A stretch of DNA of 64,000 nt from Malacoraja senta (taxonomy: Eukaryota). The position numbers and the translations under genes were made by a program. This document shows, piece by piece, positions 1 through 26,009 of the stretch. Each line of letters begins with the position of its first letter. Position 1 is the first letter of the stretch. The stretch is from assembly GCA_038087875.1 (NCBI GenBank), contig CM075990.1, positions 15,874,001 through 15,938,000 of the forward strand. Reading direction: 5' to 3'. The notes beneath the pieces are model-generated. The model made no database searches. It was not told the origin of the DNA and was given only the letters and a program-made list of their open reading frames with translations.

Positions 1-644
1 CCTAATAACCTCCATGGGGTCAGATTTCGTTCTCGGATCAGACAGCAAACGAGCCTTCCGCACAGATCCCGAGGGTGAGGTTTCAGTGCACGGATCAATG
101 CGGGCTGCCAGTTTCCCATTTTACAACTCAGATTACTGAATGCTTACACCAACACATGAAAAGTCAGGGTAAACAGAATGGGTTTGTGTTGTCCCACTTC
201 ATTATAAGATTACCGCAGAACGTTAGGAACACAACATGGTCAAAAATACAGCAAAGACCGGATAAACCGCCACATAAATTATGCAGATCTTTGGTACCAG
301 GATAGGTAACAGATGAATCACATGAATTATTTAATGTCTATCTCAGGTGTTATAGGTTTGATAAGTTTAACTGTTTAACTATCCCCGTGCTGTGTTCAGT
401 AACAGGACGGGTTTTCTCAATGGAAGAACTGGAAAAGAGTTCTCAACTTTGCACAACTTTAATCTGTGCCACCGATTATTTAATTCAAATTGTCCATATT
501 ATTGTATCCTGAGAAAATGTATGAAATGTCGCAGGACTCAAGAGGCAAATTGAAATCTTCCTTAAGCTGATCTTCCAATTAAAGTTTAAAAGATTGACAC
601 CAATAGCAATACTTAACCATGAAGAACGTTTCATTACTTTTAAG

Positions 645-980
645 GTAGACAAAAAATGCTGGAGAAACCCAGCGGGTGAGGCAGCATTTATGGAGTGAAG
701 GAATAGGTGACGTTTCGGTTCAAGACCCTTCTTCAGACTGATGTGGGGGTAGGGGGGGGGGGGGCGGGAAGAAGAAAGGAAAAGGCGGAGACAGTGGGCT
801 GTGGGAGAGCTGGGAAGGGGAGGGGAAGGAGGGAGAAAGCAAGGACTACCTGAAATTGGAGAAGTCAATGTTCATACCGCTGGGGTGTAAACTACCCAAG
901 CGAAATATGAGATGCTGCTCCTCCAATTTGCAGCGGGACTCACTCTGGCCATGGAGGAGGCCCAGGACAGAAAGGTCGGA
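645..980 (-). mobile_element. Penelope-like element 3' fragment (end of GIY-YIG ORF plus terminal repeat)
   Basis: Reverse strand encodes …KLEEQHLIFRLGSLHPSGMNIDF, followed by the CTGAAGAAGGGTC…GAAACGTC terminal repeat. Confidence 0.75.
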
Positions 981-994
981 CATTTTTCAGACCT

Positions 995-1460
995 TGGGTA
1001 TTATTGGCAAGGCCAGCATTTACTGCCTATCTCTAAATTGCCCTTGTGGAGGTTGGAGTGAGCTGCTTCCTGGAACCCTTTAGGTCCTTCAGGTGACAGT
1101 GCTTCCATTGTGCAGTTGGATACGGAGGTCCAAGATTTAGACCTAATGACAATGAAGGAACAACAATTTATTTTGGGTCAGAATGGTTACAGCGGCAGGC
1201 AATGGTGTTCACATGCATCTGCTGTTCTTCCCCTTCGTGGTGATGGAGATATTGATTGGGGAGGGGATGTTAGCAAACTTAGGTGAGTAACTGCAGTGTA
1301 TTTTGAAGCTGGTATGTCCTGCAGCCACAGTGTACCAGAGGTGGTGGTAATAAACATCATGGATGGTGTATCGGGTACCAGTCAAGTGAGCTGTTTTGTC
1401 CTGGATGGAGTTGAGTTTTTTGAACACTGGACACACACTCATCAAGACCTGTGGAAAGAA
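995..1460 (-). mobile_element. Old, decayed LINE 3' fragment
   Basis: Tail GGCCAGCATTTACTGCCTATCTCTAAATTGCCC resembles a shark LINE 3' end as I recall it; a related tail lies at ~16442 on +. Confidence 0.4.
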
Positions 1461-2551
1461 TTGCCTCATGCTCGCGTGGGAAAGAAGTGCAGATGCTGGT
1501 TTACACCGAAGATAGAAACAAAATGCTGGAGTTACTCAGCAGGACAGGCAGCATCTCTGGGGAGAAGGAATGGGTGACATTTCGGGTCGAGACTGAAGAA
1601 GGATCTCGACCCGAAACGTCACCCATTCCTTCTCTCCAGAGATGCTGCCTGTCCCGCCGAGTTTCACCAGCATTTTGTGCCTCGTGCTCTTGCCTTGTGC
1701 TTTCTAGATGAGGGGAAGGCTCTGGAGAATTAGGAGTAATTAATTCTCCAGAAGTTATACAGTCTCTGACCTGTCCTTGTATCCATGTCATTGACATGAG
1801 CACACGATGCTGGGCAATGATGACGCTAAGGATGTTAATGCTGGGCGACTCAGCAAAGAGAACCCCATGGAAGATGAACAGAAAGTAGTTAGACTCTCTC
1901 AATGGGGATAGTCATTGCCTGACACTTCTGCACCACAAAGGTACTGCCTGCTTCTGCCTGAATGTTGGCTAGGTCCTGATGTCTGCTTGCCACACCATAA
2001 TGATAAATGAGATCTTTCAACATTGCCATTCCTTAAGATAGCTCAATGAACTTTCATTCTAACACAGATAACAGTAATGGGCCTGTCCCACTTGGCCGTC
2101 ATTTGCGCGTAATTTACGCGACATCATTTACGCGTCACGACGCACGCGTCGTGACACACACATGGTGCGTGATGACAAAGGTAGTGACGCGCGACCGCTC
2201 ATCACACAAGGGCTTGTAATCATTTCTAGTCATCTTCACACAGTTTTTCTCGGCACCAGAGAAGGTTGGATGATGCAGAGCAGGACATCTGGCTGTGTAG
2301 CCACACCTGCTCCCTTGGCTAGCAACATTGTTCAACCTCAGAATTCCACAACAGCAAGGATGAAAATCAAAGGACAACTCGCACCTTCCTCTGGATTCCG
2401 TCTTGGTAATGTTTCACCCGTTAAATGTCCTCAATGTCAACACTCGTTTAGAGATATAGCGCGGAAACACAGCCCCATTCGTGGGGCCCACCAGCCCCAT
2501 CCGTGCCGACCAGCAATCACCCATAAATTAGGTCTATCATTGAAATCCTTA

Positions 2552-2882
2552 AAGCCCATGTCCCATGGTACGAGTTCATTCCAAGAGCTATCCCGAGTTT
2601 GCCCTGATTCGATCTCGGAGATTTACGGTAATGGCCACTCGTCGGTACTCAGGGCTCTCGTGGACATTTTTCAACATATTGAAAAATCTTCACGAGTCTT
2701 CCCGTGCTTACCTGCCGTTAGCGAGTCTTCCCGAGTACCTGCCGTTAGCGTTACGAGCCGCTAAGAGACGTCCCCGAGCTCCATCATACCCGCTACGTTC
2801 ATTCTACGTGCTTACCACGAGTTTGATTTTTTTTAAACTCAGGAGAGCTCTTGGAATGAACTTGTACCGTGGGACAGGGCTA
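2552..2882. mobile_element. MITE, PIF/Harbinger-like (TTA TSD)
   Basis: ~38-bp imperfect TIRs (AAGCCCATGTCCCATGGTACGAGTTCATTCCAAGAGCT). TTA at 2549-2551 and 2883-2885. Confidence 0.85.
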
Positions 2883-3085
2883 TTAGTATCTTATTTTGTG
2901 ATCCCCTTATTCCTCATTCCTGTGCTTTCCAAAAAATTATTAGTCATAGCCTTGATTTTAAGTTACTGTCCCAGAGAATTTCTAAGATTTAAACTAGTCT
3001 TATAAAGAATAGTTCACAGTATGTTTGATGCTCCAGTTCACATGATTCAAAGTTTGATGGATTCTGGTATCAGATATGTGTTTTG

Positions 3086-3380
3086 TTTAGTTCAGAGATA
3101 CAGCATGGAAACAGGCCCTTCAGCCCACTGAGTCCGCGCCGACCAGCGATCACCCGTACATTAGTTCAATCCTACACACTAGGGACAATATACAGAAGCC
3201 AATTAACCTACAAATCTGCACATCTTTTGAGTGTGGGAGGAAACCAGAACACCGGAGAAAACCCACGCAGTCACAGAGAGAAGGTACAAACTCCGTACAG
3301 ACAGCATCGGCAGCCGGGATTGAATCCAGGTCCCTAGCGCTGTAAGGCAGCAATTCTATCTCTGCGCCACCGTGCTGCCC
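3086..3380 (-). mobile_element. tRNA-derived V-SINE (HE1-like)
   Basis: Head with A/B boxes, V-domain and GGGCCTGTTTCC…TAAAC tail, as in the 42925 copy. Confidence 0.85.
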
Positions 3381-3413
3381 TTGTCTTGCAAAGTTTTCTC
3401 TCTGGATCCCTTA

Positions 3414-3647
3414 AGGGCCTGTCCCACTTGCCGATTTTTTTCGGCGACTGTTGGCGTCATACCAGGGTCGCCAAAAGATTTTGAACATTTCAAAATCCAG
3501 CGGCGACAAAAAAAGTTGCGACACTTGCGGAAACACGTCATCACGCCACGTCACTGCCGCATTACGCTGCGAATTTTTCGGTGACCTGGTACGTCAGTCA
3601 ATGAAGCCGGCAGTCGCTGCTAAAAATCACCAAGTGGGACAGGCCGT
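3414..3647. mobile_element. MITE, PIF/Harbinger-like (TTA TSD)
   Basis: TIRs AGGGCCTGTCCCACTTG…CAAGTGGGACAGGCCGT; TTA on both sides. Confidence 0.85.
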
Positions 3648-4772
3648 TTAGATCGAATCCCAAGAGTGCAGAGATCTGGATTGAGTGATCCAAATCACAT
3701 CAGAAAGCCAATCATTAACTTTTATACTTTCCAACAAGGGTAATTGATTATTAAATATGAAATAATGTTAGGTAATGAAATAATATGTTAGGTTATGAAA
3801 ACAAATAAAATTGCTACTGGAGGTATCTAGTTTTAAAGCCACTGTGTGGTTGCCTGGTAATTTGTGGTCCAATAAATATTACTTAATTCTTTCTTGTAAC
3901 TGACAGCACTCTGCAGGAGTGAATGCAATGCTTAGCTGAAAACAAATCAATCTTCTGTCCAGTTGGAATCCGAATCAATCAACCAAATTGAATGGATTAA
4001 TTAACACAAATTTACCTTCAACTGCAGTGGTGTTTATATCCAAGACATCCAACCCCAAGCAATATCAAACGCCCTGAATACAGAAACTAGTTTTAGTTCA
4101 GAGTCACAGCATGGAAATATGCCAACCATTTATCACCCATTCTCACCAGTTCTAGGCTATCCCACTTTCTCATCCACTCCTAGCATGTTAGGGGCAATTT
4201 ACAGAGGAAAATAACCCTACAAACTTGCATGTCTTTGTGATGTGAGAGGACACCAAAGGAACCTATGTGTTGGTCGCAGGAAGAATGTGCAAACTCCACA
4301 CGGACAGCACCTGAAGTTAGTATTGAACCCGGGTCTCTGGTGCTGTGAGCCAAGCCGCATCACTGTGTCACTCTAAAATTTAGTTCCATTGAATCTGAGG
4401 CAAAGAGCGACACACCTTTGGCTCACCAAGTCCACACCAGCCAACAACCACCCACATATCCGACCTAAACCATTCTTGTTTCAAAATTCCCCCAATTCTC
4501 ATCAACCTCCCCTCTATTCTACCACTCAGCTACGCACTTGGGGCAAATTTACAGCAGCTAGTTAATCTATCAACCCGTACGTCGTTCAGAAGTGGGAGGA
4601 AATCTGGAAGAAGCCCGTGCGGCCAATGGGAGCACATGCAAACTCCACACAGACACAGCAGGCCAGGATTGAAGTCGGGTTGCTGGCACTCTCCACCCAT
4701 GAACAGTGCAGTGTCGAGGAGGACAGGCACAAAAAGCTGGATCAGACAGAGTCTCTGGAAAAAAGAATAGGT

Positions 4773-4803
4773 GACGTTTCGGGTCGAGACCCTTCATCAG
4801 ACT
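4773..4803 (-). ncRNA. Minimal hammerhead-ribozyme-like core in a Penelope terminal repeat
   Basis: Minus strand reads AGU CUGAUGA A GGGU-CUCG-ACCC GAAAC GUC: conserved core boxes, helix II and a GUC triplet. Helix I is weak. Confidence 0.6.
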
Positions 4804-6239
4804 GAGAGTCAGGCGGGGAGGGGGGGGGATACTAGAGGCGTAGAAATGTACAGAGCAAAGCAGAGCCTGCATCGTTGACTCAAAAAAGGTGGAGCCCACA
4901 ATGGTCCATTGTTGGCTGAGGACGGGGTGATAACAAAGGAATACAAATGGTGAAATTAGCAAGATGGCTCGGGTGGGGGAGGGACACAGAGAGCGAGAAT
5001 GCAAGGGTTACATGAAGTTAGAGAAATCAATATTCATGCCGCTGGTTTGTACTGAAGAAATCACATTTTTCTTTCTGTCCAACCATTAATTAACCATTCC
5101 TCTATTGGAGACTTTGCAGAAATTGAAGCTTACACCAGCTATACGATGAGATGTGACTGTGCGGAGAACCGCACTGGCTTTAATATTTCATTGCTGTTGG
5201 TCTCCAGAGAAGGAGTGATCACTGCCTGGAAGATTGCTGCGTTAGAATCCAACTAATCCCCAAATCAAACAAATGCCAATCAGTAGGTGTCTCAGGCACA
5301 GAATTAGTGTAGAGACAGCACCAACTGCAGCGACAAATTCTGGCAAAGGAACAAATGATTTCAAACTTGGTCCCACACCTTTGCAATCGCGATGAAATCA
5401 ACAAAACATCGTCAGCTGCAGTTTTTGCACATAAACTAAACATGAAGAAAGATAGATAGACACACTGACGCAGACCACATTCCCATGCTTGTACTGAGTC
5501 GCATTATATCATCGTTCTGCTTTTTATATTCTGGGTAGAATGTGGTTTGGAAGGAAGAAACCACGTAACGTGGTGAAGCATAAAGTCCTCGTGATGTGGG
5601 TTCGACATCTGATTTACCGAGTTTTTTTTGTGTATGATAATGGAAGTCCCCTTACCTCACCCTCCACCAATGTTCCCCGTTGATGGCTTCAGAAGCTCAT
5701 GGTTCCATCACATGAAGCCTCGTCAAAGTGAGATACATCCCAAACTCTGCATCCTGTCCCCGCCCATGGTGGGTGCCGGAGGACAGTTGACCTCACGCCT
5801 CTGAGAGGGCAAAGGGGGACCCGTCATGGGGGGGTCAAGAGATCAAAGAGGGACCTGGCTGTGGGGTGGGGCACGCCGAGAGAACAAACGGGACCATTGG
5901 GGACTACATTGAGCACTTTGTAACTTTGTCACCATCCTGTACGTGGTGATTCATTGCATACTCTATGTATGGTAAGCAAAACAAAGAATTTCAATGTGAA
6001 ATGTCCCATAATAAAGTATCAATCACTCATAGCCACATATCCCACTCATGTGTCCTTGCCCAAACTCCACTGGCCTATCCTCCTTCCTACCAACTCCAAA
6101 CCCAACCTCGATTATAAAATCATTCACCGATCCACTCTGGAGTTGATCTCACCCGATCTCTGCAACTTCTTTCCTGCTCTCTGGCAAAGTTTCCTGACAA
6201 ACGTCAGCAGTCCGATAGAGAAATGCCAGCATTTAGGGA

Positions 6240-6520
6240 CGGCACGGTGGTAGACCTGCCGCTTCCTAGCCCAAAAAAACCCAGGTTCGGTTCGGCCCTG
6301 ACCTTGGGTGCTGTCTGTGCAGAGTTTGTACGTATGACCGCGTGGGTTTTCTCCAGTTGCACCAGTTTACTCCCACACTCCAAAGACATGTAGGTTTGGA
6401 GTTTAATTGGCTTCTGTAAAATCCCCCGAGTGCACAGAATACAAAGTGGGATAAAATAAAACTAGCATGGGCTCGATGGGCCGAATGGCCTGTTTGCACG
6501 CTGTATCTCTAAACTAAACT
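6240..6520 (+). mobile_element. V-SINE (HE1-like)
   Basis: GGCACGGTGG head, V-domain, CTAAACTAAAC tail. Confidence 0.8.
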
Positions 6521-7039
6521 ATACTCCATAACCGTCAGGAAGCCAGGGCACCTGGAGAAAACCCACGCGGCCACAGGGAGAATGTACAAACTCCGTACAG
6601 ATAGCACCTGTGGTCAGGATCGAAACCAGGTCTCTGGCGCTGTACGGCTGCTACACCACTCTGCCTCCCCTAAACATATGAGATACGCCTAAACACAGTC
6701 GGACGTCCATCCAGCATTCCCTGCATTGCTGCCTCAAAAAAGTCTCTCCGATTTTAAAAGTCCATTGTACATTTACTTTGCACAACTCTTTCAGGTAGTG
6801 TACAGACATCCTAGAATCCCAGCCTCGTTCCCTTGACCTGCTCGCTATTGCTGACAGATCAGAGGGCACTGCGCTCCTGGATGTGTCAACAGGGTAGAGG
6901 AAAGGCACAGCATCCCAAACACTTGGCATTATCCAACAGTCAATCCCACTTCAGGGAGGTGACCACTGATTAAGATATTGGCTGGTATGTGACTATAAGA
7001 CATAAAAGGGAGTTTAATTACCCACAATCTCAACTCCAT

Positions 7040-7348
7040 TAGTTTAGTTTAAAGATACAGCGTGGAAATAAGCCCTTTGGCCCACTGAGTCTGCACCGAC
7101 CAGCAATCTCCGCACATTAACACCATCCTACACACACTAGGAACAATTCACATTTACACCAAGTCAATTAACCTACAAACTTGGACGTCTTTGGAGTGTG
7201 GGAGGAAACCGAAGATCTCGGAGAAAACCCACGCAGGTCACGGGGAGAACGTACAAACTCCGTACAGGCCAGCACCTGTAGTCAGGATCGAACCCGGGTC
7301 TCTGGCGTTGCAAAACAGCGACTCTACCACTGCGCCACCGTGCTGCCT
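7040..7348 (-). mobile_element. V-SINE (HE1-like), full length
   Basis: A box TGGCGCAGTGG, B box GGTTCGATCC, V-domain and tail on the minus strand. Confidence 0.85.
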
Positions 7349-9124
7349 TGCCGTCCATCTTAAACTTAAGGGGCACCAAGTCTCGTTTCTTCCTTTTACA
7401 CCTCTCCCACGGGGCTAAAAATTGCTGATGACTTTCTGAAAATGATTCCCAAATGTACCATCAAAATTTATGTTTCCATTTGTGGTCTTGGGATGCCAGT
7501 TTTACAACGATGGCATTGGTAGATGGGTTGTCATTTTGAGGCAAGCTTTCAAAAGGTATATCATTCATGCCCTGTGGTTACGCAGGCTTCACAATACTGT
7601 CAAAATACAGGTTAATTTGAGAAAAGCTTTCAAAGGTTCACAACTGATGCCCTACGCAAAGGCACTTTCAGTTGATCCATCAAATTTTTCCGGCTGAAGT
7701 GTTGATAGACTTTAAATGCTTTTTCAATGCCATTTCTCTCTTGACAAATCATAAGCAATTTGAGGAGATATGGTTCAGCCGGGAATTTGTTCACAATAAA
7801 CATCATAGAAATATTAAATTAGAGACATATGAGCGGCTTTAATTTACAAAGTAAACGTGCCCTCAAGATGTAGACCGGAGATTGAAGGGGAAGGTGTATC
7901 TTACGAGTGTGCTTTTTCTGCCCATATCAAATCTTACCGAAGATTTAAATATTCCCAGTCCCACCGGCCATGCTGAATAGTTTGAATTTTCCTTCATAAG
8001 AAACCCTTTCAGTGATATGAAAGAAAGGATACTGTTAAATTGGTTGACAGTCCTATGCGCAGGTTATAGAACAGAAGAATGATTTTCAAACAACTAAATG
8101 TGTTCAGATTTGAAAAACAAATCTGCCAAGGACATACAAATACTGTCAAATGTATTTCCTCAGAGACTTTGTACGCGCAGAAGGTTGTCCACCCCAATGT
8201 AGTGGCAATGTGTTCTTTACAGAGTAGTCATAGATTTATACAGCATAGGAACAGGCTCTTTGGCCAAGTGTCTTTCTGAGCTGCTCCCATTCATCGGCGT
8301 TTGGCCCATGTTCCTCTGAGCCTTTCCTATCTACGTACATGTCCAAATGTGTTTCAAACATTATAATTGTATTCACTTCCAACATTATCTGTGGCAGCTC
8401 GTTCCTTATACCCACCACCCATAGAAGTCAATAAGTCTATAATTATAGATTAATAGCACATCATGACATATTCAGAATAAATATTTTCACTGGTCTGAAG
8501 AAGGGTCTTGACCCAAACATCACCCATTCCTTCTCTCCAGTGATGCTGCCTGTCCCGCTGAGTTACTCCAGCATTTTGTGTCTAAACCAGCATCTGCAGT
8601 TCTTTCCTGCATACTATTTTACTACAAGAGAGACCGAGTACAAAGGATGTGGGAAGTATCGTTATAATTGTTCAAATATCTGATGGAACCATTCCTGGAG
8701 GACTAAGTAGAGATTAGAGATTAGAGATTCCTTTATTTGTCATTCAGACCTTTCAGTCTGAACGAAATTTGGGGTCTTGACATTCCTTCTCTCCAGTGAT
8801 GCTGCCTGACCCGCTGGGTTACTCCAGCCTTTGTGTCTATCCTTGGTTTAAACCAGCATCTGTAGTTCCTTCCTACATGGACTATGTAAGGACCTGCCTG
8901 CCATGAAGATAGTGTAAAGGAGTATCCCTGGATTGATTTCTAGGGTGAAGGAATTGGCTTGAGATAGGATTGCACAGTAGGATGAAAACTCTTTGGTTTT
9001 AGAAGAATGGGAATTGATATAATTGGAACATAATAGAATCTTATGTGCCGAAGATGATAATAATAATAATAATAGATTATATATATACCCGATGCTCCAA
9101 AATTAAGGATTTATACTGGGGGAT

Positions 9125-9370
9125 TAGTTCAGTTTTTTAGTTCAGTTTATTGTCACGTGTACCGAGGTACAGTGAAAAGCTTTTATTGCGTGCTAACCAG
9201 TCAGTGGAAAGACAATACATGATTACAATCGAGCCATTTACAGTGTACAGATACATGATGAGGGAATAACGTTTAGTGCAAGGTAAAGCCAGTGAAGTTC
9301 GACCAATGATAGTCCGAGGGTCGCCAATGAGGTAGATAGCAGTCCAGGGTTGCTCTCTAGTTGTGGTATG
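9125..9370 (-). mobile_element. Rex/Babar-like LINE 3' UTR
   Basis: Same 3' UTR (…CACTGTACCTCGGTACACGTGACAATAAACT) as the ORF-bearing copy at 53617-54048. Confidence 0.65.
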
Positions 9371-9771
9371 ATGATTAGATTCAGGAGAAAGACACAAAGT
9401 GCTGGAGTCACTCAACGGGACGGGCAGCATCTATGTAGGGAAGGAATGGGTGACGAAGACCCTTCTTCAGACAATGCAGGATTTGGTTGATGAAATGATC
9501 AGTCTGTCACTATTGCCACTCAAGAAATGTTGCTCATGAACAAGAGACCCAGCTCCAATTGAAGCCTTGATATCTTTGAGTTGTGAGTGTTTCCTTTCAC
9601 TGGCATGCACATAAAGGTTGTGTGGGATTTAACACAGGGCTGATGCTGTCTGACCATTGGTAAACCAGCATCGGACTACTGGTGACAGTCTTGGGCACAC
9701 AAAGTGTGCATGTTTAGTTTAGTATCGTTTATTAATGTCACGTATAGCGACGTACAGTGAAGAGTTTTTAG

Positions 9772-10280
9772 TTTTCGAAATGTAGCGCAGGAACAGGCCC
9801 TTTGGCCCACCGAGTCCGCGCCAACCAGTGACCCCCATACACGAACAATATCCTACTGTTCAAGGACAATTTTTACAATTTTACCAAAACCAATTAACCT
9901 ACAAACATGTACACCTCAGAAGTTTGGGAGCACCTGGAGAAAACCGACACAGGTCACAGGGAGAACATACAAACTCCGTACAGATGGCAACCGCAGTCAG
10001 GATCTAACCCAGGTCTCTGGCGCTGTAAAGGGCCTGTCCCACTTTCACAACCTCTGCTGAGTTTGCCCTTGACTCATACTCGCAGCATGGTCGTCATGAG
10101 GTCGTAGGAGGTCGTAGGTAGGTCGTGATGCTAGTCGTAGGCACTTGTGGCATCAAGTAGGTCGGGGCGTTTATTCTAGCCTGATGAAAAATGTCCACGA
10201 GTAAAAAAGGTCGTGAATTAGGTCGTGAAAGTGGGACAGGCCTTTAAGGCAGCAACTCTGCAGCTGCGCCACCGTGCCGC
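9772..10280 (-). mobile_element. V-SINE interrupted by a MITE
   Basis: SINE head GGCGCTGTAA|GGCAGCAACTC is split at the TAA. Confidence 0.8.
10029..10244. mobile_element. MITE, PIF/Harbinger-like (TAA TSD)
   Basis: TIRs AGGGCCTGTCCCACTTTCAC. TAA at 10026-10028 and 10245-10247; uninterrupted SINE copies have one TAA here. Confidence 0.9.
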
Positions 10281-12443
10281 CATTTTGTCTGCGTGCTATC
10301 CAGTCAAAGAGAAGACTGTACACGAGTACAACCCAGCCATCCACAGTGCATAGTTAAAGTGTACAACATGTAATGCAAGATATAACATTGAATTACGATC
10401 AAAGGTCTCCAATGAGGTAGATGGGAGATCAGGACCACACTCTGGGATAATTCCCTTATTGGCAATATTCTGGAAAACATTGGTATCGTCTTTCCAGATT
10501 CCATATTTACTGTACAATGAGCCCAAATTTCTCCTTCGTTGTCTTTTAATGCTTGCAAGCATCACGGTACAACTTTGCTACACAGATGCTATATTAGAGC
10601 CACAAGGAACAGCTGGAATCTGGAGCAGAACGCAAAGTGCTGGGGAACACAACGGGTCAGGCAGCATCTGTGGGGGAAATGGACAGATAACGTTTTGGAT
10701 CAGGACCCTTCCTCAGTCTCAAGATAGTACATTACTTCAAAGATAGACACAAAAAGGCTGGATTAATTCAGCGGGTCAGGCAGCATCTCCGGGGAGAAGG
10801 AAAGGGTGACGTTTCTTCAGTCTGAAGACGGGTCTCGACCCGAAACGTCATCTATTCCTTTTCTCCAGAGATGTTGCCTAACCCGTTGAGTTACTCCAGC
10901 TCTTTGCGTCCATCTTCTGTGCAACCCCGCACCTGTAGTTCCTTCCTACCTATTACAATACTTCCCTACCTTCCACAATGTGTGTATAAGCACATAAGGC
11001 CAGCTTCAATGACGTGTGGTTTAACTACACTGCTTAAAGTTCACCATATAGTGCAGCTTTCAACAAGAACGTCTCCACGGCAACCAAAACATTGTCCAAT
11101 GGCTCCATTATGAAAACGCTGCCGGCTGCATTGGAAATAAATTGGTGTTGAACATTTGCTTCGTTTAAAGAAATGTTCGCACAAGCTGGTCAATGTTGCA
11201 TTGAGAAAGATAACAATAGTTTTCATTGCTCCGGGTTCCTTCACAGGGCATTGAATTCTTTCCAAAGCAACACTAAATATTACTATTGCAGCTGATATTA
11301 CAAAATATTAATTCTTCCAATTCATCAGTGTCATCAAGAGATATTGCACAGAAACAGGCCCTTCGGCCCATAGAGCCTACACTGACCATCAATCCCACAT
11401 TTATATTTGTGAAGTGTGAAAGCGCACACCTCCAGATTCAGGGACTGTTTCTCCCCAGCTGTTATCAGGCAACTGAACCATCCTATTAACAACCAGAGAG
11501 TGATCCTGAGCTACCATCTACCTCATTGGAGACCATCGGACTCTCTTTGATCGGACTATACTAGACTTATTCCCTTTATCATGTATATGTACACTGTGGA
11601 TGGCTTGATTGCAAACATGTAAGTCTGCTCCATATATTCCACAGAGATGCAAGCATAGCTTGGGTCCATGTGAAGTCCCCCTAGCAACATGTGTGTCAGA
11701 CATGCCATCCTATGTCCTGCTCCTCTAACTCTGTTGGACATTGTTTTATGGAAAGAGAAAGTGCTTCACTTAAGAATTCTGACAGACAAATATCAGACAA
11801 TGGAGCTTAACAGGTGTGAACAAATTGTTTGTGATAGATGGTCCATCCGCAAGGTACCCGCAGTGCAGGTAGCCAATATTCCAGATTGCCGGAGCGTCAC
11901 GAGAATGTTTGTTTTATTTTGGGAAGAGTCAAACGGCCGCTTAACAAGTCTCTGAACCTGATTTGATCGACAGTTGTATCCTCAGTTTTACAACACTAAC
12001 TGCACAGCCTTTGGCAACTGGTTAGAATCTGCTATCTGGACCCAATGTACTCCAAAAGGCAAACAGTGTCAAACATCATTTAAAATCATGCAGAAACAAA
12101 CAAAAGATTTTTTAATATTGAAGAGGAAAACAGCAGATTGCACCCCTTAAATCCAAATAACGTCAAGGAACCTAATGTGGGGACTGCTTCTATATAACTT
12201 TGCTTTTAACTGTAAAAGTGATGTGGTCATTTAGCCTGAATTGCACAGTCAACTTCTTGTTTCTCTCCTGCTTCCCAGAGATCAAGAAATCATCAGTTCT
12301 AGTGAGCGCCCTGATGACTTAAGTATTAATTGTTCACCGTTCGCACTTCATCTCAGAGATTTCATATTTTAAGTGAGGCTTTGGCTTCCATGCCAATGAA
12401 AGCTTCCATGCCATCTGATCTCTTCAAGGGTGGAGTCCTGCGA

Positions 12444-12992
12444 GACCAAGCACAGATCATTTCGCTGAACACCTCCGCTCAGTCAGCCTAAACCTACCTG
12501 ATCTCCCAGTTGCTAAACACTTTAACTCCCCTTCCAATTCTCACACTGACCTTTCTGTCCTGGGCCTCCTCCATTGTCAGAGTGAGGCCCAGCGCAAATT
12601 GGAGGAACAGCATTGGGCTTGGGCAGCTTACACCTCAGCGGTATGAACTTTGACTTCTCTAATTTCAAGTAACCCTTGCTTTCCCTCTCTATCCACCCCC
12701 CTCCCCCCTCCCAGTTCTTCAACCTGTCTTACTGTCTCAGACTACATTATATCTCTGTTTGCTTTGTTGTTACCTTCTCCCAAAAATGATCTAGTCTACA
12801 TTTTTCTTGATTTCCATTCCCTTTGTCGTGTTTTCACACCTTACTCATCCTTGTCTATACATTTCCTTATCTACATACCTTCCACTCCCCTGACATCAGT
12901 CTGAAGAAGGGTCTCGAGCCGAAACCTCACCCATTCCTTCTGTCCAGAGATGCTGCCTGTCCCGCTGAGTACTCCAGCATTTTGTGTCTATC
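12444..12992 (+). mobile_element. Penelope-like element 3' fragment
   Basis: Decayed GIY-YIG C-terminus (FAEHLRSV…PVAKHFNS…KLEEQH), then 3' UTR and terminal repeat. Confidence 0.8.
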
Positions 12993-13061
12993 TTTGACCT
13001 CTTTTATATAGAGTGATATCTTATTAGTCTCCATCAGCTTTCTGGGATTTACATGCTTCAA

Positions 13062-13390
13062 TCAATAGACAATAGACAATAGACAATAGGTGCAGGAGTA
13101 GGCCATTTGGCCCTTCGAGCCAGCACCGCCATTCAATGTGATCATGGCTGATCATCCCCAATCAGTACCCCGTTCCTGCCTTCTCCCCATATCCCCTGAC
13201 TCCGCTATTTTTAAGAGCCCTATCTAGCTCTCTCTTGAAAGCATCCAGAGAACCGGCCTCCACCGCCCTCTGAGGCAGAGAATTCCACAGACTCACCACT
13301 CTCTGTGAGAAAAAGTGTTTCCTCGTCTCCGTTTTAAATGGCTTATTCCTTATTCTTAAACTGTGGCCCCTGGTTCTGGACTCCCCCAAC
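13062..13390 (-). mobile_element. CR1 LINE 3' end with (CTATTGT)n tail
   Basis: ORF …TRGHSLRIR…FFSQRVVSLWNSLPQRAVEA…FKRELD is a typical CR1 ORF2 C-terminus. Confidence 0.9.
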
Positions 13391-13694
13391 AACATTGGAT
13401 ATTGTCACATAGTCATCTGCTGGAGCTCACTGTATACAAATTGCCTTCTATATTTTGTGCTTTCCTGATCTGAAATGTCGCCTGTTCATTCCCATCACAG
13501 AATTCAAACAGACTTGGACTGGTACAAGGATAGGACAGGCTTTGAGGGATATGCCCATTATATTGAAATTTGGAAGCAGCATATCAAAATGAATAGGAAA
13601 GAACTGCAGATGCTGGTTTAAACTGAAGATAGACACAAAATGCTGGTGTAACTCTGCGGGACAGGCAGAATCTCTGGAGAGAAGGAATGGGTGA

Positions 13695-14352
13695 TAGAAA
13701 CATAGAAACATAGAAATTAGGTGCAGGAGTAGGCCATTCGGCCCTTCGAGCCTGCACCGCCATTCAATATGATCATGGCTGATCATCCAACTCAGTATCC
13801 CGTACCTGCCTCCTCTCCATACCCTCTGATCCCTTTAGCCACAAGGGCCACATCTAACTCCCTCTTAAATATAGCCAATGAACTGGCCTCGACTACCCTC
13901 TGTGGCAGAGAGTTCCAGAGATTCACCACTCCCTGTGTGAAAAAAGTTCTTCTCATCTCGGTTTTAAAGGATTTCCCCCTTATCCTTAAGCTGTGACCCC
14001 TTGTCCTGGACTTCCCCAACATCGGGAGCAATCTTCCTGCATCTAGCCTGTCCAACCCCTTAAGAATTTTGTACGTTTCTATAAGATCCCCTCTCAATCT
14101 CCTAAATTCTAGAGAGTATAAACCAAGTCTATCCAGTCTTTCTTCATAAGACAGTCCTGACATCCCAGGAATCAGTCTGGTGAACCTTCTCTGCACTCCC
14201 TCTATGGCTATAATGTCCTTCCTCAGATTTGGAGACCAAAACTGTATGCAATACTCCAGGTGTGGTCTCACCAAGACCCTGTACAACTGCAGTAGAACCT
14301 CCCTGCTCCTATACTCAAATCCTTTTGCTATGAAAGCTAACATACCATTCGC
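13695..14352 (-). mobile_element. CR1 LINE 3' fragment, young, (CTATGTTT)n tail
   Basis: Uninterrupted ORF2 peptide LYRVLVRPHLEYCIQFWSP…LEFRRLRGDLIETYKI…WNSLP. Confidence 0.92.
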
Positions 14353-14647
14353 TTTCGGGTCAAGAGCTTGTCCCTTTAATAAAGCCCTCCTCATTATTAA
14401 AGTTTCAAGATCAAATGTATTGTCACATCCACAAGTACATTGAGGTACAGGTGCAATGAAAATCTGCTTGCAGCAGCTTCTCAAACACATGGAGTCAGAT
14501 AATTATACATAAAAAACGCATACAATTCTTGAAGAAAGAGGACTGTGCAAAAGACAATTCATTGCTGCATAAACATAATTAGAAAAAACAAGTCCATAGT
14601 AGTGCAAGAGGTGGAGGACGGTGGTCTGTGGTCGAGACAGTATTAGG

Positions 14648-15051
14648 CAAAGATCCTATAGCGAGCAAGATAGATCACTCGATGAAAAAGACGTAGTACG
14701 GTCACGGACAGATTCACGGGTCATTTTCGGCCCCACTTCCGTAACCGGCTTCCGTCTCCGCACCAAAGATCCCATAGCGGAGCAAAGATACTAGTGCGGA
14801 GACGGAAGCCGGTTACGGAAACATCCTCGTAAAAATAAAAGTTCTTTGGTAAAAATGTTCTCCTCATTTTCAGAATTATAATTTATTAACACAAACTGTT
14901 CCCCCGCAACGTTGATTCCACTGCGAGTCGGGTCGGGTCGGGCTACTGAAATGGATGAAAAAAAGGCCCACGTTCCGCTCCGTTGCGTACTACATGTCAG
15001 CCCATTGCATTTAGCAGGAGTGGTCTATCTTGCTCCGCTATAGGATCTTTG
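14648..15051. mobile_element. Non-autonomous hAT-like DNA transposon
   Basis: TIRs CAAAGATCCTATAGCG(G)AGCAAGATAGA. 8-bp TSD GTATTAGG at 14640-14647 and 15052-15059. Confidence 0.9.
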
Positions 15052-15335
15052 GTATTAGGGTGGTTCAAGAACCTGTTTGTTGTGGGTAAATTGCTGTTCC
15101 TGAACCTGCTGGTGTGGGTGTTCAGGCTTCTGTACCTTAAAAGTGCTTTGTAAACCTTATGGGCATGTAGATAATGATTAAAGGTAATCATGCATACATT
15201 TCCTCATTGCAATTCACATAAAATGAAGCGTGACGTACGATGGGTTCAAGTTTCCTAAATACTTCAAACACTTCGACTTCTTCAGCGAGTAACATGAATA
15301 TAGGAAAATATGCCATCAAAGCACCATAGCTGCAT

Positions 15336-15610
15336 CACAGCTCCAGAGACCCGGGTTCGATCCTGACTACGGGTGCTGTCTGTACGGAGTTTGTACATTC
15401 TCCCTGTGACCGCGTGGGTTTTCTCCGGGTGCCCTGGTTTTCTCCCACACTCCAAAGACGTACAGGTTTGTAGGTTAATTGGCTGTGGCAAAATTGAAAA
15501 TTGTCCCTAATGTGTAGGATTAGGTTAGTCTATGGTGTGATCGTTGGTCGGCATGGAGTCAGTGGGCCGAAGGGCCTGTTTCCACGCTGTATCGCTGGAG
15601 TCTAAAGTCT
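15336..15610 (+). mobile_element. V-SINE, 5'-clipped
   Basis: B box, V-domain and tail. Confidence 0.8.
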
Positions 15611-17106
15611 GAAGGTGGAACAACTAGATTTTACAAGAAGACAGAACCTACAGACAGATATCCCTGGACATATATGTGCAAGTTTTATGTCAAGTTTCAA
15701 TGCGATGCATGGTCCAATTTAGAGTTTTATCCTCTCTTGGACATTATATCCTTTGACAGAACAAAATCTTCAGAGAGATATGGCCCCAACATTTTGAGCA
15801 TAAGTGAAGCAAACCCTCACAATGCTATGGTCAGAAATAACTTTAAATGCAATTTACACAAGTATCGGGGACACTTTCAACATTTCATTCTGCCTACATT
15901 ACATGGTTACATACGCATTCTGTTGAATGGCAATAGCCTGGAGACCTCATCACGATGAGTGGATTACAAACATAAAGGACATGTTCATATAAGCAGAACA
16001 AAGGAACTGCAGGTGCTGGTTTACACAAAAAAGGACACAAAGTGCTGGAGTAACTCAACAGGACGGGCAGCATTCCTGGAGAACATGGATAGGGTCTATG
16101 ACTGGAGAAAGGTCCCAACCAGAAATGTCACCTATCCATATTCTCCAGGTATGTCGGCTGACCTGCTGAGTTACTACAGTATTTGGTGTCTGTTTCTATT
16201 TGTACCTTCAACATAATAAAACTGAGAGAACACTCAGTAACCGCAGGATATTGCAGTGGAGCTTGAGGTAAGATTTATGGAGCGAAGGAATAGGTCAAGA
16301 CCCTTCTTCAGACTGATGTAGGGGGGGGGGGTGGGGGCGGGAAGAAGAAGGATGAGACAAAGCCTGCTACCACATTGTATCTCTAAACTAAACTAATATA
16401 CACGACTGCAAAACCACCAATGCAGTTTACTCTTGACTGTCGGGGCAACTAGGAATGGGCAACAAATTGTAGTATTGCCGTTGACATCCCCAAATAGATG
16501 TAACAAATCTGAGCAGTCTACTTAAACAACTGGAGCGCAATTTCCACAAATGAAACCTTTATGCACATAGGTCGTGCTTCAATGCATTTATTGTATCTGA
16601 TGTCCTTGCGAGATTATGCTAATGAGAATTCCAAGGACTTGTAGATTCTCTTGGATCTAACACCCTGGAGACTCTGAGGACTCTCAGGTTAATTGCTTTC
16701 CCTAAGCACATATTGATCATGGTTAAATAAATCCTTGCCCACGGCCTCCTCCCGATAGCAAGAAATTCGATCTTCACAGAAACAGAAGAGCTCATATTTT
16801 CATGAAAAAGAATTGTAGAATTGTTACAGCGTGAAAGGAGCCTATTTGGCCCATTGAGTCTATGCCAGCCCGTTGCAAGACTAATCCAGTTCCTCTTTTG
16901 CTCCCTTGAGCACCTGTCTAAACGAGGGCAATGAGAGACTGTGAATTTCATGATGACAGGGTGAAACTGTCCAGTTCGGCTACTTCCATGGTCTGGCATG
17001 TTTTGAATCTATACTACAGATTGATACTAATTAACTAATTCTAATTAAGGTCCAGCTAAGATCTAAAATGAACTAAGAATTGTACCGACCTGTAGCCAAT
17101 TAACCT

Positions 17107-17368
17107 TTAGAGATACAGTGCAGAAATTGGCCCTTTGGCCCACCAAGTCCACGCCGACCAGCGATCACCCCATACAGTAGCACTATCCTACACACTAGGG
17201 ACAATTTACAATCTTACAGAGTGTGGGAGGAAACTGGAGCACCAGTTAAAAACACCATGCGGTCACAGGGAGAACGTACAAACTCCGTACAGACAGCACC
17301 CGTAGTCAGGATCGAACCAGGGTCTCTGGCACTGTAGGCCGCAACTCTACCACTGCACCACCATGCCG
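17107..17368 (-). mobile_element. V-SINE
   Basis: Matches the other copies, with an internal deletion. Confidence 0.8.
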
Positions 17369-20300
17369 CAGTACACCTAACATTTTTCCTATTGTGGATC
17401 CATTTGCTAGGTCACATATCTTTACATCAGCTGTTCCGAAAGAGCATTATCCATCTCCAGGAAAATCCCACTTGCCATTTTTGTGTGCATCTGTTTTAAG
17501 CATCCAGAACACTTGTTACTCTATAAATCTCCGGTTTACTACCCCCTGGGGCATGCAGCTTGGTCTCATCCAATGTCCCATTAAGGCAGCATTCTCCTCC
17601 ACATTGTTCAGCAATATGTAAACACCAGGAGGCACATAAGGTACAACCACTGAACTCCGTTTATCACTGACCTCCTGATAAAGCTTCATTTATCATCTCC
17701 TGTTCCCTACCGATAAGCCAGTTCTTTTATGAAACCAGCTAATTATCTAACAGCATTAGCATGCTGCAAATATTGAAATATAAAAAGCAACTATTCCGAT
17801 CTACAGCTTGGAATACGTTCTCCATGTTCTAAAAGGCCCATGTTCATAAATTCCAGCAGTGTGACAGTAGGTAGAAATATATATATTTTTAAATTTAAGC
17901 TACAGCACACATAGACTTTCCTATTTTTAGCCTTCCAATAAAATTAACAGTGGATGACGAATGACTCGCTGAGGTTTATCTGAATGATTCATCTGAAAGG
18001 CCACGCCTTTAGTCAATATGGCATAGTCTACAACCCTTATACAAGGGTGGTGAATCTGTGGAATTCATTGCCACAGATGGCTGTGGAGGCCGTCAATGGA
18101 TATTTTTAAGGACAGGCAGCATCTCTGGAGAGAAGGAATGGGTGTCATTTCAGGTCGAGACGTCGCCCATTCCTTCTCTCCAGAGATGCTGCCTGTCCCG
18201 CTGAGCAACTCCAGCATTGTGTGTCCATCTTCGGTTTAAACCAGCATCTGCAGTCCCTTATGGGAAGAAGGAAGGAGAATAAGGTTAGGAGGGAGAGATA
18301 GATCAGCCATGATTGAATGGCGGAGTAGACTTGATGGGCCGAATGGCCTAATTCTGCTCCTATCATTTCTGACCTTATGAACAAACCTCATCTCATCATC
18401 AGTCGGCATTATTTTGGCATCATGTTGGAAGCAACACCATTTACCTTTGGAGGAGGTCAAGGAGTTGAGGAGATTCAACAGCTGTGAAATATGGACAATC
18501 AGAAGGGAAGCTACTCTTTAGAAGATTTTCTTGCGATGTTTACTCACCTATTTGATGATATTAGTTATGATGCTCAATTTCATTGGCTTGGGCTGCTGTA
18601 AACTATCATCTTCCAACCTCACACAGCTAAGCCTGACTGGGTGGATAGCCAGACGTTCAGCCCCAACTAAACGGTTTCCTCTGCAGGGAAAAATTGTCCC
18701 TGTTCTTCATTCCCTGTTCCATCACACGAAGGTTTGTTAACCTCAGTAACATGTAAGGGATGATTCCACGGATGTGGCTTGAAATTGTTATCATCCCGAC
18801 TGATTAAATGTTGCATCAATGGCATTTAAACCAGTGGCGTGAAAATATCCCTCTGCACATCCACACAGCTGGGCACCATTTGTGAATGCAGTCCGTCACT
18901 GCCTCAGGTAACCTTGCTCAACCCTCCCTGCAGTGCTGAAGATCGCAAAGCTGTGACAGCCTCATTATAGACAGCAAATGGAAAAATAAATAAAGATACA
19001 TGTTTAAACACATGAAAGGCTTCCAGCACACTTGAAGATCATGAAAGCACTGAGCTTTGAAGTTGATTTCGTGATGGAGTGAGAGGGGGCGGAAGAGATG
19101 GGTGGGGGGGGGGGGGGGGGGGTGTTTACAAATCACCAGGACTAGACCCTAGTCCTAGATAACTGGAACCATTCATGCATGGAGAAGTAATTGAAAAATC
19201 AAATATTAAAAACACACCCAGCCTCAACATCAAATACAGCATGAATGCAACAAGAACAGTGAAAAAAGATAGACAATAGGTGCAGGAGTAGGCCTTTCGG
19301 CCCTTCGAGCCAGCACTGCCATTCAATGTGATCATGGCTGATCATCCCCAATCAGTACCCCGTTCCTGCCTTCTCCCCATATCCCCTGACTCCGCTATCT
19401 TTATGAGCCCTATCTAGCTCTCTCTTGCAATGGCTGCATTTTTTTTTAAACACCTTCAGAAAAATCACCATGAGATGGGATTAGTTGGGGTCAAGGAATA
19501 CTTAATCTGCATCAGAAACATTAATTGTGCACCTTGAAAGTGGGCGAAATTGAAGTATCTTTTCAACATAATTAAGTGATCTAATTCATTTTAAATAAAT
19601 GGAAAATTTGTATTATCTGACTTCTTCAGATTATGGAACTTGAAATTAATTTAACTCAGTGAGCGTTTTTGCAAAGCTTGTCCCCGTCTCCGAGACATTC
19701 TCTAGTCTCTAGTTACAGTTTCAGGTCCCTGACTAATGGCCATCTGTTAGGATCCAGTTAGAATTCGATCGACACCTGTTTCTCTCAGTCAACCAGTGCA
19801 GTCAGAAACATCCCAATCACTCAGAACCCAATAACATCGATGGGAACACCATCCATTTCACATCCCACCATGATCTGGGTACCCTGTCCCTGAAGTCACA
19901 CCAACCTGCCATGTCACAATGCAATGAAGATACACATGCCTAGAGTTGTGACAAAGCGCTGGAGTAACTCTGCAAGTCAAGGCGGCATCTCTGGAGAACG
20001 AGGATAGGAGTCGCAAAGTGCTGGAGTAACCCAGCGGACCAGGGGGGTCTCTCACTCTGGTCAGACAGCATCTCTGGAGAAAAAGAATAGGTGACGTTTC
20101 GGGTCAGGACCTTTCTTCAGACTGAGCCCACAGAGTCACCGTCAACCATCGGTCCCCCTGTCCACATTTGTGACAATGTACAGAAGCCAATCAACCTACA
20201 AACCTACGTGTCTTTGGAATGTGTGGGGGGAAACCTGAGGAAACCCACGTGGTCACAGGGAGAACGTACAGGCAGACAGCACCCGTGGTCAGGATCGAAC

Positions 20301-20462
20301 CTGTGTCTCTGGCGGTATGAGGCAGCAACTGCACCACTTTGCCGTCCCAAACTTAGATCTAATTTCTTTTGAAAAATTCAAGTATTTAAAAATACTAGGA
20401 AAACAAGACAATGCTGAGTCATGGAGGTATTTTACAAATAAGATACCACAAAGACATCCAGA

Positions 20463-20740
20463 GTTTAGTTTAGAGATACAGCGTGGAAACAGGCCCTTTG
20501 ACCCACCAAGTCTGCGCTGATCCCCACAAACCAGCACTATCCTACACGCACTAGGGACAGTTGACAATTTCACCAAAGCCAATTAACCTACAAACTTGGA
20601 TGTCTTTCGAGTATGGGAGAAAAAACTATGCAGGTCACGGGGAGAACGTACGAACTCCATACAGACATCACCCGCGGTCAAGGTCGAACCCGGGTCTCTG
20701 GCACTGTAGGACAGCAGCTCCACCACAGCGCCACACTGCC
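20463..20740 (-). mobile_element. V-SINE
   Basis: Matches the other copies. Confidence 0.75.
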
Positions 20741-21424
20741 ATCCCATCGGAGATCCCAATCAAATGAATAGGCATGTAGTTCCTACACCGGGCTTCCATG
20801 GTATAAATCTGAGGCCAGATGTGAATGGCACCTTGACCTTTCTCCAGCGCTTCACTGCCAATGGGCCAATGGTGAATCTAACAGTGGAGTGGATGATCAG
20901 TCACATAGGCATATACATCACTGTGATTTGAAATATTTTCAGCAGGATTTTTTCATTCTCAAAATGAGGTGCAACCTGTTCAGGAACCAAATGATGTTTT
21001 CGCCCAGTCAACATGTGATGAACTTTTTTTTTTTTTAAATCAGCGGCTGGCTCGTTAAACTCACAAAAACCCATTTAAACAAGCTGTTTGCACAGATGTT
21101 CTGTCCGTGTCTCCATTCTGTATCAAGCGCAAATTCATTAGTCACTCTGAGTGGCATGTTTTACTGAGGAACAGCTGCAAATTTGGAAAGGAACCAAATC
21201 ATTGCAACGTTGAGGAGAAATTCCTGTCAATGATATTGTGCCGATTATGCCAGGGAATGAAAGATCAGGCCTCGGGTAAAGTGAAATCTCAAAATCCCTC
21301 TCTTGCTCTTCAACCTCTGTAGATAGACCCAAAATGCTGGAGTAACTCGGCAGGACAGACTGTATCTCTGGAGAGAAACAATGGGTCTGGTACCTGTGCT
21401 AGAGAAAATACTTCATTGCGTGAT

Positions 21425-21852
21425 ACATGATGAGCGCTTGATGCCACTGGGCCTCTACTCGCGGGAGTTTAGAAGAATGAGGGGGTACCTCATTGAAACG
21501 TGCAGAATAGTGAAAGGCTTGGATGGTGTGGATGTGGGGAAGATGGTTCCACTAGTGGGAGAGTCTAGGATTAGAGGTCATAGCCCCAGAATTAAAGGAC
21601 GTTCCTTTAGGAAGGAGATGGGAAGGAATTTCTTTAGTTAGGGGGCGATGAATCTGTGGAATTCTTTGCCACAGAAGAGTGTGGAGGCCAATTCAATGGA
21701 TATTTTTAAAACAGAGAGAGATAGATTCTTGATTTGTACAGTGTCAGGGGTTATGTGGAAAAGGCAAGAAAATGGGGTTAGGAGGGAGAGATAGATCAGC
21801 CATGATTGAATGGCATAATAGGATGGGCCAAATGGCCTAATTCTGCTCCCAT
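21425..21852 (+). mobile_element. CR1 LINE 3' fragment
   Basis: LGLYSREFRRMRGYLIET…ESRIRGHS. Its tail GATGGGCCAAATGGCCTAATTCTGCTCC recurs at ~18350, 29490, 32800, 44220, 45650, 46280, 58250 and 62480. Confidence 0.85.
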
Positions 21853-24464: not shown

Positions 24465-25235
24465 CGAAGATGGACACAAAAAGCTGGATTAACTCAGCGG
24501 GACAGGCAGCATCTGTGGAGAGAAGGAATGGGTGACATTTCGGGTTGAGACCTTTTTCGGACTAGTTAGGGATAAGGGAAAGGAGAGATATAGACGGTGA
24601 TGTGGAGAGATAAAGAACAATGAATGAAAGATATGCAAAAAAGTAACGATGATAAAGGAAACAGGCCATTGTTAGCTGTTTGTCCGGTGAAAATTAGAAG
24701 CTGATGCGACTTGGTTGGTGGAGGAGGGACAGAGAGAGAGGGAATGCCGGGGCTAGCTGAAGCGAGAGAAATCAATAATCATACCACCGGTCTGTAAGCT
24801 GCCCAAGTGAAATATGAGATGCTGTTCCTCCAATTTGCATTTAGCCTCACTCTGATAATGGAGGAGACCCAAGACAGAAAGGTCAGTGTGGGAATGGGAA
24901 GGAGAATGAAAATGTCCAGCAACCGGGAGATCAGGTTGGTTCAGGTGGGCTGAGCGAAGGTTTTTCCGCGATACGATCGCCCAGTCTGCGTTTGGTCTCG
25001 CCGATGTATAAGAGTTCACATCTTGAACAACGATACAGTAGATGAGGTTGGAGGAGGTGCAAGTAAACCTCTCCCTAACCTGAAAAGACTGTCGGGGCCC
25101 CTGGACAGAGTCGAGGGAGGAGGTATAGCGACAGGTGTTGCACCTTCTGCGGTTGGAGGGGAAGGAACGTGGGTAGAGGGTGGTTTGGGTGGGTAGGGAT
25201 GAATTAACCAAGGAGTTGTGGAGGGAACGGTCTCT
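24465..25235 (-). mobile_element. Penelope-like element, longest GIY-YIG remnant (frameshifted)
   Basis: RCNTCRY…FTCTSSNLIYCI, then (frame change) YIGETKRRLGDR, then PVAGHF…EEQHLIFHLGSLQTGGM, then 3' UTR and terminal repeat. Confidence 0.85.
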
Positions 25236-25500
25236 GCCGACACCCTTCGGCACACGAGGTCGCGCCGACCAACGATCACCCCGTACACTAGCACTACCCT
25301 ACACACAAGGGACAGTTTACAATTGTTACCGAAACCATCAACCGTCAAACCAGCATGTCTTTGGAGTGTGGGAGGAAACCTGAGCCCCTGTGGAAAACCC
25401 ACGCGGGCACAGGGAGAAGGTACAAATTCCGTACAGACAGCACCCGTGGTCAGGATCAAACCCAGATATCTGGCACAACTCTACCGCTGCACCACCCGCC
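25236..25500 (-). mobile_element. V-SINE abutting the Penelope remnant
   Basis: V-domain and degenerate head. Confidence 0.75.
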
Positions 25501-26009
25501 CCTGTGTGGTGATCCCAAGTGGGACGTCATCTTCTTCACCATACGGTAACCTGTCTCAGACCGTGCAAAGTATGGAGCTGGGTTTCTGACTCATCCATTT
25601 GGTTCAACCCAAAAAGCCACCCATTACGAGAATGGGACTGAAATTAATCATAGCACTCAACGTAATTAGTTTCTATTTATAAAACTTTACTGTGCAGCTG
25701 TGGTAGGTGGAAAATCTTGACTGGTTACTCTTCAAATGTTTGAGATTTTTCACTTATATGGTTAAATAATTAAGGTATGTTGAGAATCAAAGTCATTAGT
25801 TAAACTGATCCAACTGGAATGACACCTCATTATATCCCCTCTACGGTTTACTTGCGGCTTTCTAAACTTCTGACTGATTTCATTCTCCTCCATAAACAGT
25901 AGTGCATCGTCCTGGCTCCAATCATACATGTTCCACTGTGGCAAATCCATTATACCCTGGGTACCCAGCCCGTGGCAGATGAGGGACCCAACTATGTATT
26001 GGCTCAGGT

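Follow-up and report, generated by a model that had tools for sequence, protein, structure and literature searches.

Minimal hammerhead ribozymes (min-HHR) have been described in the pseudo-LTRs (pLTRs) of metazoan Penelope elements, including Xena, Poseidon and Neptune of fishes (Cervera & De la Pena 2014, PMC4209133; our comparisons refer to its results, discussion and part of its methods). A copy lying inside a host gene raises the question whether it cuts the pre-mRNA of that gene. We addressed this question for a copy in the skate Malacoraja senta, on the minus strand of a stretch of 64,000 nucleotides (GCA_038087875.1, contig CM075990.1, positions 15,874,001 to 15,938,000; hereafter the window). 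The original prediction, made from the letters of the window, had placed a hammerhead core at 4773..4803, in sense with a channel gene, and had suggested that paired copies might cleave the pre-mRNA or release small RNAs.

The core was found on the minus strand as predicted. At 4800-4773 (-) the string reads CUGAUGA, an extra A, GGGU(CUCG)ACCC, GAAAC and GUC, preceded by GU and followed by AC, and string reading together with a pattern search gave a complete minimal type-I hammerhead pattern at 4802-4771 (-). The window contains 16 matches to the predicted pattern at up to three mismatches, against 0 in 100 shuffles. In the numbering of PMC4209133, TCAGT (4801..4805, -) supplies G2.2 (4802) and U2.1 (4801) of helix I; C3-U4-G5-A6-U7-G8-A9 and the extra A between A9 and G10.1 occupy 4793..4800 (-); a helix II of 4 bp, with a CUCG loop and a G10.1-C11.1 pair, is read from the letters at 4781..4792 (-); and G12-A13-A14, the palindromic ACGU (A15.1-U16.1, loop III absent) and C17 lie at 4773..4780 (-). 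The scissile bond is predicted between 4773 and 4772 (-), followed by the 3' strand of helix I (A1.1 and C1.2, 4771..4772, -). Helix I of the focal copy has only two base pairs, as originally estimated, and the following two positions are mismatched. No partner of its 3' strand within 250 nt upstream beat shuffles (best -5.8 kcal/mol, shuffles -4.7 +-1.8), and a longer helix I was discarded for this copy. A 10-bp match found about 195 nt upstream in the young family described below (-12.3, best of 30 shuffles -10.2) was also rejected as a feature of the family, being weaker in older copies and without clean covariation in 86 copies.

The min-HHR core consensus (CUGANGA / GAAA / UH) is present in the focal motif, as are the extra nucleotide 9/10.1, the G10.1-C11.1 pair and the palindromic 15.2-16.2. 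The trait of canonical type-I hammerheads, a helix I of ~6 bp with a contact between loop I and loop II, is absent (2 bp, no match in Rfam). An Rfam scan of the whole window at E<=1, the kind of search that had been proposed as a check, reported no hammerhead among 12 hits, all of which are microRNA-type or hairpin models matching inverted repeat pairs. Judged from its letters, and by every feature testable here, the motif is a Penelope minimal hammerhead and not a canonical type-I one. The predicted class (a minimal type-I hammerhead of a Penelope terminal repeat, with a palindromic ACGU helix III and an extra A after A9) agrees feature by feature with PMC4209133, whose min-HHR share with the skate motif the type-I topology, the full core, the extra nucleotide, the G10.1-C11.1 pair, the palindrome without loop III, the presence in both pLTRs and the thousands of solo copies. 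Helix II is shorter here (4 bp) than in Schistosoma (7-8 bp), and so is helix I (2 bp vs 4-5 bp), a length of 2 bp being found also in a D. virilis variant (PMC4209133). The motif was correctly spotted, and its kind is already known (PMC4209133, published in 2014). The results, discussion and part of the methods of that paper name no skate; its supplements (alignments, table S1) may already list a chondrichthyan motif. A short palindromic stem III is shared as well with the small Penelope hammerheads for which dimer cleavage was reported (Lunse, Weinberg & Breaker, RNA Biol 14:1499, as summarized in passages of PMC6765202 and PMC6466107). Unlike those dimers, the focal copy has no tandem partner.

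Across the genome we counted 43,687 exact intact patterns (0 in a reversed control), exceeding the ~9,000 given for Xenopus (PMC4209133). The CUGAUGA that had been called canonical is present in the focal copy, but it is a sporadic change at a free position and not the family state, with U at position 7 in 481 of the 43,687 patterns. The endonuclease gave 87,291 first-look candidates in the genome. A young subfamily, with ORFs of up to 1247 aa, comprises at least 150 copies that match each other exactly over 118 aa, and a 45-mer of the young family has 26,637 exact genomic copies; this identity suggests recent or ongoing activity. A full-length copy (L133:3372-7776, in G000:C1:278050000-278059999) consists of a pLTR, a 1247-aa ORF and a second pLTR. 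The two pLTRs are 418-bp direct repeats, 99.8% alike, and both carry the motif, as do those of another locus, L140. The single ORF contains RT, a C-x4-C-x2-C linker and, at its C-terminus, a GIY-YIG endonuclease with CCHH, the arrangement of EN+ Penelope-like elements (the matches to RVT_1, E=6.6e-6, and to GIY-YIG, E=0.0016, fall below Pfam cut-offs; CxxC and two His are seen), and in the young family its first ATG lies ~135 nt past the cleavage site. The structure also corresponds to EN+ Penelope elements in its pLTRs, its inverted 5'-truncated neighbours, and its 3' ends, which cluster ~36 nt apart at two places, ~65 and 100 nt beyond the cleavage site. A zinc-finger-like CX2-5CxxC linker between RT and endonuclease marks the Neptune clade and is shared with Nematis, according to part of PMC8557442. 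The element thus appears Neptune-like, a placement based on the cysteine linker and the vertebrate host and not on an RT tree. Our literature search found no paper on Neptune Penelope repeats in skates.

Animal non-LTR retrozymes are pLTR-derived hammerhead repeats, reported also from one chondrichthyan (bioRxiv 10.64898/2026.07.22.740005, in part). They form tandem arrays, whereas the skate copies are dispersed, single or head-to-head inverted. An array at G000:C1:3870341-4030235, with a spacing of ~2.45 kb, contains the young pLTR 45-mer and is possibly a Penelope-derived satellite or a retrozyme-like array.

The focal copy is a 5'-truncated insertion at 4728..5051 (-), made up of an endonuclease tail, the 3' UTR and a pLTR head. 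BLAST matches to other copies begin at 5051 and stop near 4730-4739, the 3' edge being approximate, with a short internal deletion near it; the best match among the compared DNA is 80.5% over 267 nt. The motif had been described as directly downstream of the GIY-YIG ORF. This is correct for the family; in the focal copy, only the last ~13 codons and the stop of the RT/GIY-YIG ORF survive (5008..5051, -), a remnant without a domain, recognized by translation from the C-terminus shared with full ORFs. It lies 207 nt upstream of C3, with UTR between, and the tail after the motif is shortened. The insertion is old, since a contig of another organism (X23) bridges the 5051 junction with a flank ~5% diverged; the orthologous motif was not readable in other organisms, where contigs break inside the repeat.

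The host gene is KCNMA1 (BK channel alpha). Its coding exon 1 is at 47809..48048 (-), 95% identical to Amblyraja radiata KCNMA1 and matching solved BK channels, and a protein search placed exon 2 at C14:15791566-15791381 (-), followed by further exons. Intron 1 spans ~130 kb, of which 1..47808 (-) is in the window, with no other exon before C14:15791566. Since exons 1 and 2 flank it on the minus strand, the motif is in sense with the channel pre-mRNA in intron 1, exactly as had been proposed. Most KCNMA1 exons are on C14 and the 3' exons on the small contigs C1052 and C5845, which rules out that exon 1 is an orphan. The Pfam model PF03493 (BK_channel_a) matched only at G000:C11:18347699-18350119, probably a related channel gene, and not at KCNMA1 on C14.

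The motif-bearing repeat is indeed the most abundant of the window: self-BLAST yields 48 segments for it, and 26, 15 and 15 for the families that follow. With a profile built from 23 natural copies, nhmmer located 61 copies within the window, and 322 over a span of 464 kb. Five further near-intact cores had been listed. All five sites exist, but only two of them, at 10820..10851 and 46652..46683 (both +), have the intact pattern (10822 and 46654); both are antisense to KCNMA1 and belong to head-to-head inverted pairs. The other three are damaged: the nearest sense copy (709..736, -), 4 kb downstream in the transcript, has intact core letters and one broken helix II pair; the copy at ~1593 (+) also has a broken helix II pair; and the sense copy at 20093..20120 (-) has lost G10.1. 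Longer GIY-YIG remnants of the same element family were seen at 24753-25298 (-) and 51053-51508 (-), each followed by a pLTR (24463-24566 and 50868-50958). Another young repeat of the window is represented by two near-identical C-terminal fragments of a LINE RT, at 13792-14502 (-) and 34638-35585 (-), the longer with RVT_1 at E=0.0005.

Head-to-head inverted pLTR pairs occur in the window at 1500-1683, 10732-10923, 18110-18240, 23550-23733, 26695-26854, 39758-39971, 46570-46758, 55880-56100 and 57982-58136. Such pairs give long hairpins in transcripts of either strand, and are the source of the false microRNA matches in Rfam. An inverted arm lies directly upstream in 128 of the 273 classified regional copies. 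In the KCNMA1 region and at C1 loci, inversion junctions often coincide with palindromes of the motif itself, namely TCAG-N-CTGA and the helix II/GAAAC region, a placement that snap-back cDNA priming would predict. An effect on the host is more likely to come from the double-stranded RNA of inverted pairs (editing, small RNAs) than from cleavage.

Among the rival explanations, the one deserving most attention is that the motif no longer cleaves even in active elements and is kept by overlap with an internal promoter or a protein-binding signal, which we consider unlikely but not negligible. Predicted folding speaks for it. In nearest-neighbour computations, which ignore tertiary core contacts and proteins, an open core together with helix II has a low probability in all 27 distinct intact natural variants (group medians 0.000-0.156), and helix II has a probability of 0.00 in five contexts of the young family. 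In the focal copy the pair probability of helix I is at most 0.003 and that of helix II 0.09-0.48, and three of four contexts have an MFE structure in which UGAUG and CGUCA form a U7-dependent helix spanning the cleavage site. The computed probability of an open core with helix II is 0.001 for the focal copy and 0.017 for a near-identical A7 copy; since all 27 variants fold poorly, poor folding appears to be a trait of the family and the effect of U7 modest. In the young family a 6-bp hairpin taking in GAAAC (L133:3701-3716) can compete with helix II, and could be an off state.

The ends of inserted copies point in the same direction, as they neither start nor end at the cleavage site. These boundary figures rest on samples and not on a genome-wide count: the sole basis for choosing the 59 young copies from C1 was the 45-mer lying downstream of the cleavage site (the first 100 matches listed gave 70 loci, one member of a tandem array being kept; the anchor was offset by one base, and some matches were dropped). 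Their 5' ends fell at TCAGT/C3 in 19 cases, in the core in 19, within +-2 of the cleavage site in 4, beyond it in 1 and further upstream in 16, so 43 of the 59 are short pieces starting at or just past TCAGT. No pile-up was found at the cleavage site in this sample (4/59 vs 5 expected under an even spread, p=0.81), nor among regional copies, of which 13/273 begin within +-2 of it. Per base, TCAGT/C3 has ~100 times as many starts as the 309 nt upstream, and of the 322 copies in the KCNMA1 region, 273 were classifiable and only 39-40 have the UTR upstream. All 41 endonuclease-anchored young loci run through the cleavage site. Since copies span that site, the inserted RNAs were uncut at the motif, or cut and re-ligated; the end-mapping is a genomic hint that they were not cut there.

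The wall at TCAGT, where the 5' ends of short young-family copies and loose ends coincide, is most simply an RNA 5' end, and TCAGT at 4801..4805 (-) is likely that of the element. TCAGT presumably resembles an initiator. A start at this place would explain the 2-bp helix I, only AGU standing before C3. Alternatively, the wall may have arisen because reverse transcriptase stalled at a C-rich tract, or because the CAG served as a splice acceptor. A pyrimidine tract ending in CAG right before U2.1 (L133:3640-3689; window 4801-4835, -) resembles such an acceptor, and the intron of D. virilis Penelope ends at the same place, as described in PMC4209133. Among the 15 joints listed, of 15+91 in contigs, none was a GT..AG joint leading into the CAG that precedes the core. 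Three loci (L165, L184 and L191) carry short duplications of the first core bases immediately upstream of the 5' end, as if priming had been repeated at the end of an RNA. The loss of ribozyme function agrees also with the position of the motif right behind the likely start, where part of PMC2377424 places the internal promoter of Drosophila Penelope, and PMC4209133 allows for non-cleaving functions.

Against a mere signal stands the way in which the motif has changed between subfamilies. We clustered 284 distinct spanning copies on flank columns only, and obtained four subfamilies of 89, 76, 17 and 9 copies, the remaining small clusters being left out. The commonest motif letters differ between subfamilies at two loop positions, position 17 (C/U), and 11.4 and 1.1 (A/G). 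Both A/G changes are opposite U, and all five non-CpG changes are tolerated by the fold, at hammerhead-free positions or with wobble pairs kept; the chance of five of five tolerated transitions is ~0.012. G12 and G16.2 differ too, in the smallest and oldest cluster, which we read as CpG decay. A test by columns gave 0/19 vs 14/53 (p=0.015) with the two wobble columns and the CpG columns set aside post hoc, and 2/23 vs 15/55 (p=0.08) unadjusted. In the covariation analysis that had been proposed as a check, loop and one-sided wobble changes are seen, but no double-sided compensatory change in 6 pairs of 14 sequences. These subfamily changes give modest support to selection on the motif in the transposing lineage.

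The second argument against a lost ribozyme is PAc, a Poseidon element of Anolis carolinensis, whose motif does cleave, provided that the element's protein is present (Frangieh et al. 2024, PMC11167929). C3 and G8 mutants are dead and the double mutant is partly rescued; cleavage is not needed for insertion, and no RNA-seq ends lie at the site (PMC11167929). The skate element resembles PAc in that its pLTR hammerhead lies upstream of a pair of 3' end sites separated by 30-40 nt (the "tail") and in that inserted copies span the uncleaved site. It differs from PAc in its Neptune/Nematis-type cysteine linker, and in its ATG ~135 nt past the cleavage site, whereas the PAc ORF starts inside stem II (PMC11167929). 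Our preferred model for the element is that selection acting on the transposing lineage maintains the motif, whose cleavage would occur only in tandem dimers, probably together with the element's own protein, and would serve to process the element RNA. This RNA would start at TCAGT, three bases before C3, reverse transcription would start internally ~95 or 130 nt downstream, and run-off at the RNA 5' end on uncleaved RNA, with internal initiation as in the anole element (PMC11167929), would give the many short copies. We found no paper with such a run-off model, most subscription literature being outside the search. The loss of ribozyme function concerns the biology of the element, and is compatible with a focal copy that does nothing to its host.

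It is very improbable that the focal copy cuts KCNMA1 pre-mRNA, with a sense partner or the element's protein, thereby lowering or reshaping BK transcripts or releasing small RNAs. The copy is old, in sense and fully intact (19 of 322 copies are fully intact, 7 sense and 12 antisense); addition of the element's protein makes a related Penelope hammerhead cleave (PMC11167929), and the same genome has a young family whose ORFs are intact. But across KCNMA1 neither sense enrichment nor sense preservation was seen in copy counts or core decay. The 448 kb of the gene that were scanned hold 147 copies in sense and 160 in antisense (p=0.49). In intron 1 a single intact sense copy, the focal one, was seen among 54, against ~3 expected from the regional rate. 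Core decay was compared in 106 of 109 spanning copies, three having been dropped for a divergence >25%. Non-CpG core changes were 35/580 in sense and 28/580 in antisense copies (p=0.44), and the general base G12, which lies in a CpG, was lost in 14/53 and 14/52, respectively. Excess conservation of the core over the flanking repeat had been proposed as a check, and the non-CpG core is indeed better conserved (63/1160, 5.4%, vs 483/5583, 8.7%, p=0.0002), but the comparison retains an ascertainment bias; since the excess is equally strong in antisense copies, we put it down to ascertainment and unresolved subfamilies. A first, gap-counting pass gave a deficit of core changes in sense copies only (p=0.004 vs 0.53), with p=0.41 in the direct sense-antisense comparison.

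Cleavage by paired copies, as originally suggested, finds no better ground in the RNA itself. The nearest sense partner, 4 kb away, has a broken helix II, and a dimer would depend on 4+2+2 intermolecular pairs over at least 4 kb, with competing folds far more stable: the computed double hammerhead has -6.1 kcal/mol, against -27.5 for the MFE dimer and -8.7 for each monomer. For published min-HHR, cleavage was absent in monomers and weak in dimers (PMC4209133), and of nine Xenopus retrozyme dimers eight were without cleavage and one was active (bioRxiv 10.64898/2026.07.22.740005, in part). As for help from the element's protein, the region it binds in the anole element is the ORF start (PMC11167929), which is absent from the focal copy. 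From the orientation-blind copy number and core decay, the poor predicted folding and the published weak or absent cleavage, we conclude that the focal copy is very probably an old, 5'-truncated Neptune-like Penelope insertion and a silent passenger that does not cut KCNMA1 pre-mRNA. A role in BK-channel RNA processing is very unlikely.

In a wider form of the idea, the tens of thousands of intact motifs would be protein-switched cut sites: wherever the young, intact Penelope family is expressed, its protein would fold sense intronic copies into active hammerheads, and so cleave host pre-mRNAs transcriptome-wide, that of KCNMA1 included. We regard this as a long shot. Least probable is a chance or purely descriptive match unrelated to hammerheads, which would accord with the missing Rfam match and the missing double-sided covariation but is already largely refuted by position and anatomy, the motif lying at the published place in both pLTRs, with all the features present that PMC4209133 gives in addition to its descriptor (the extra base after A9, the G10.1-C11.1 pair and the palindromic 15.2-16.2), and with 0 matches in shuffled or reversed controls.

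As a switch of its host gene the motif is probably without importance, and its value is as study material. The role of hammerheads in endonuclease-bearing Penelope elements has been called unclear (PMC8557442), and the young skate family lends itself to the assay that was applied to the anole element. Also testable is the model derived from end-mapping, in which the short copies would arise by run-off on an RNA whose start lies three bases before the core.
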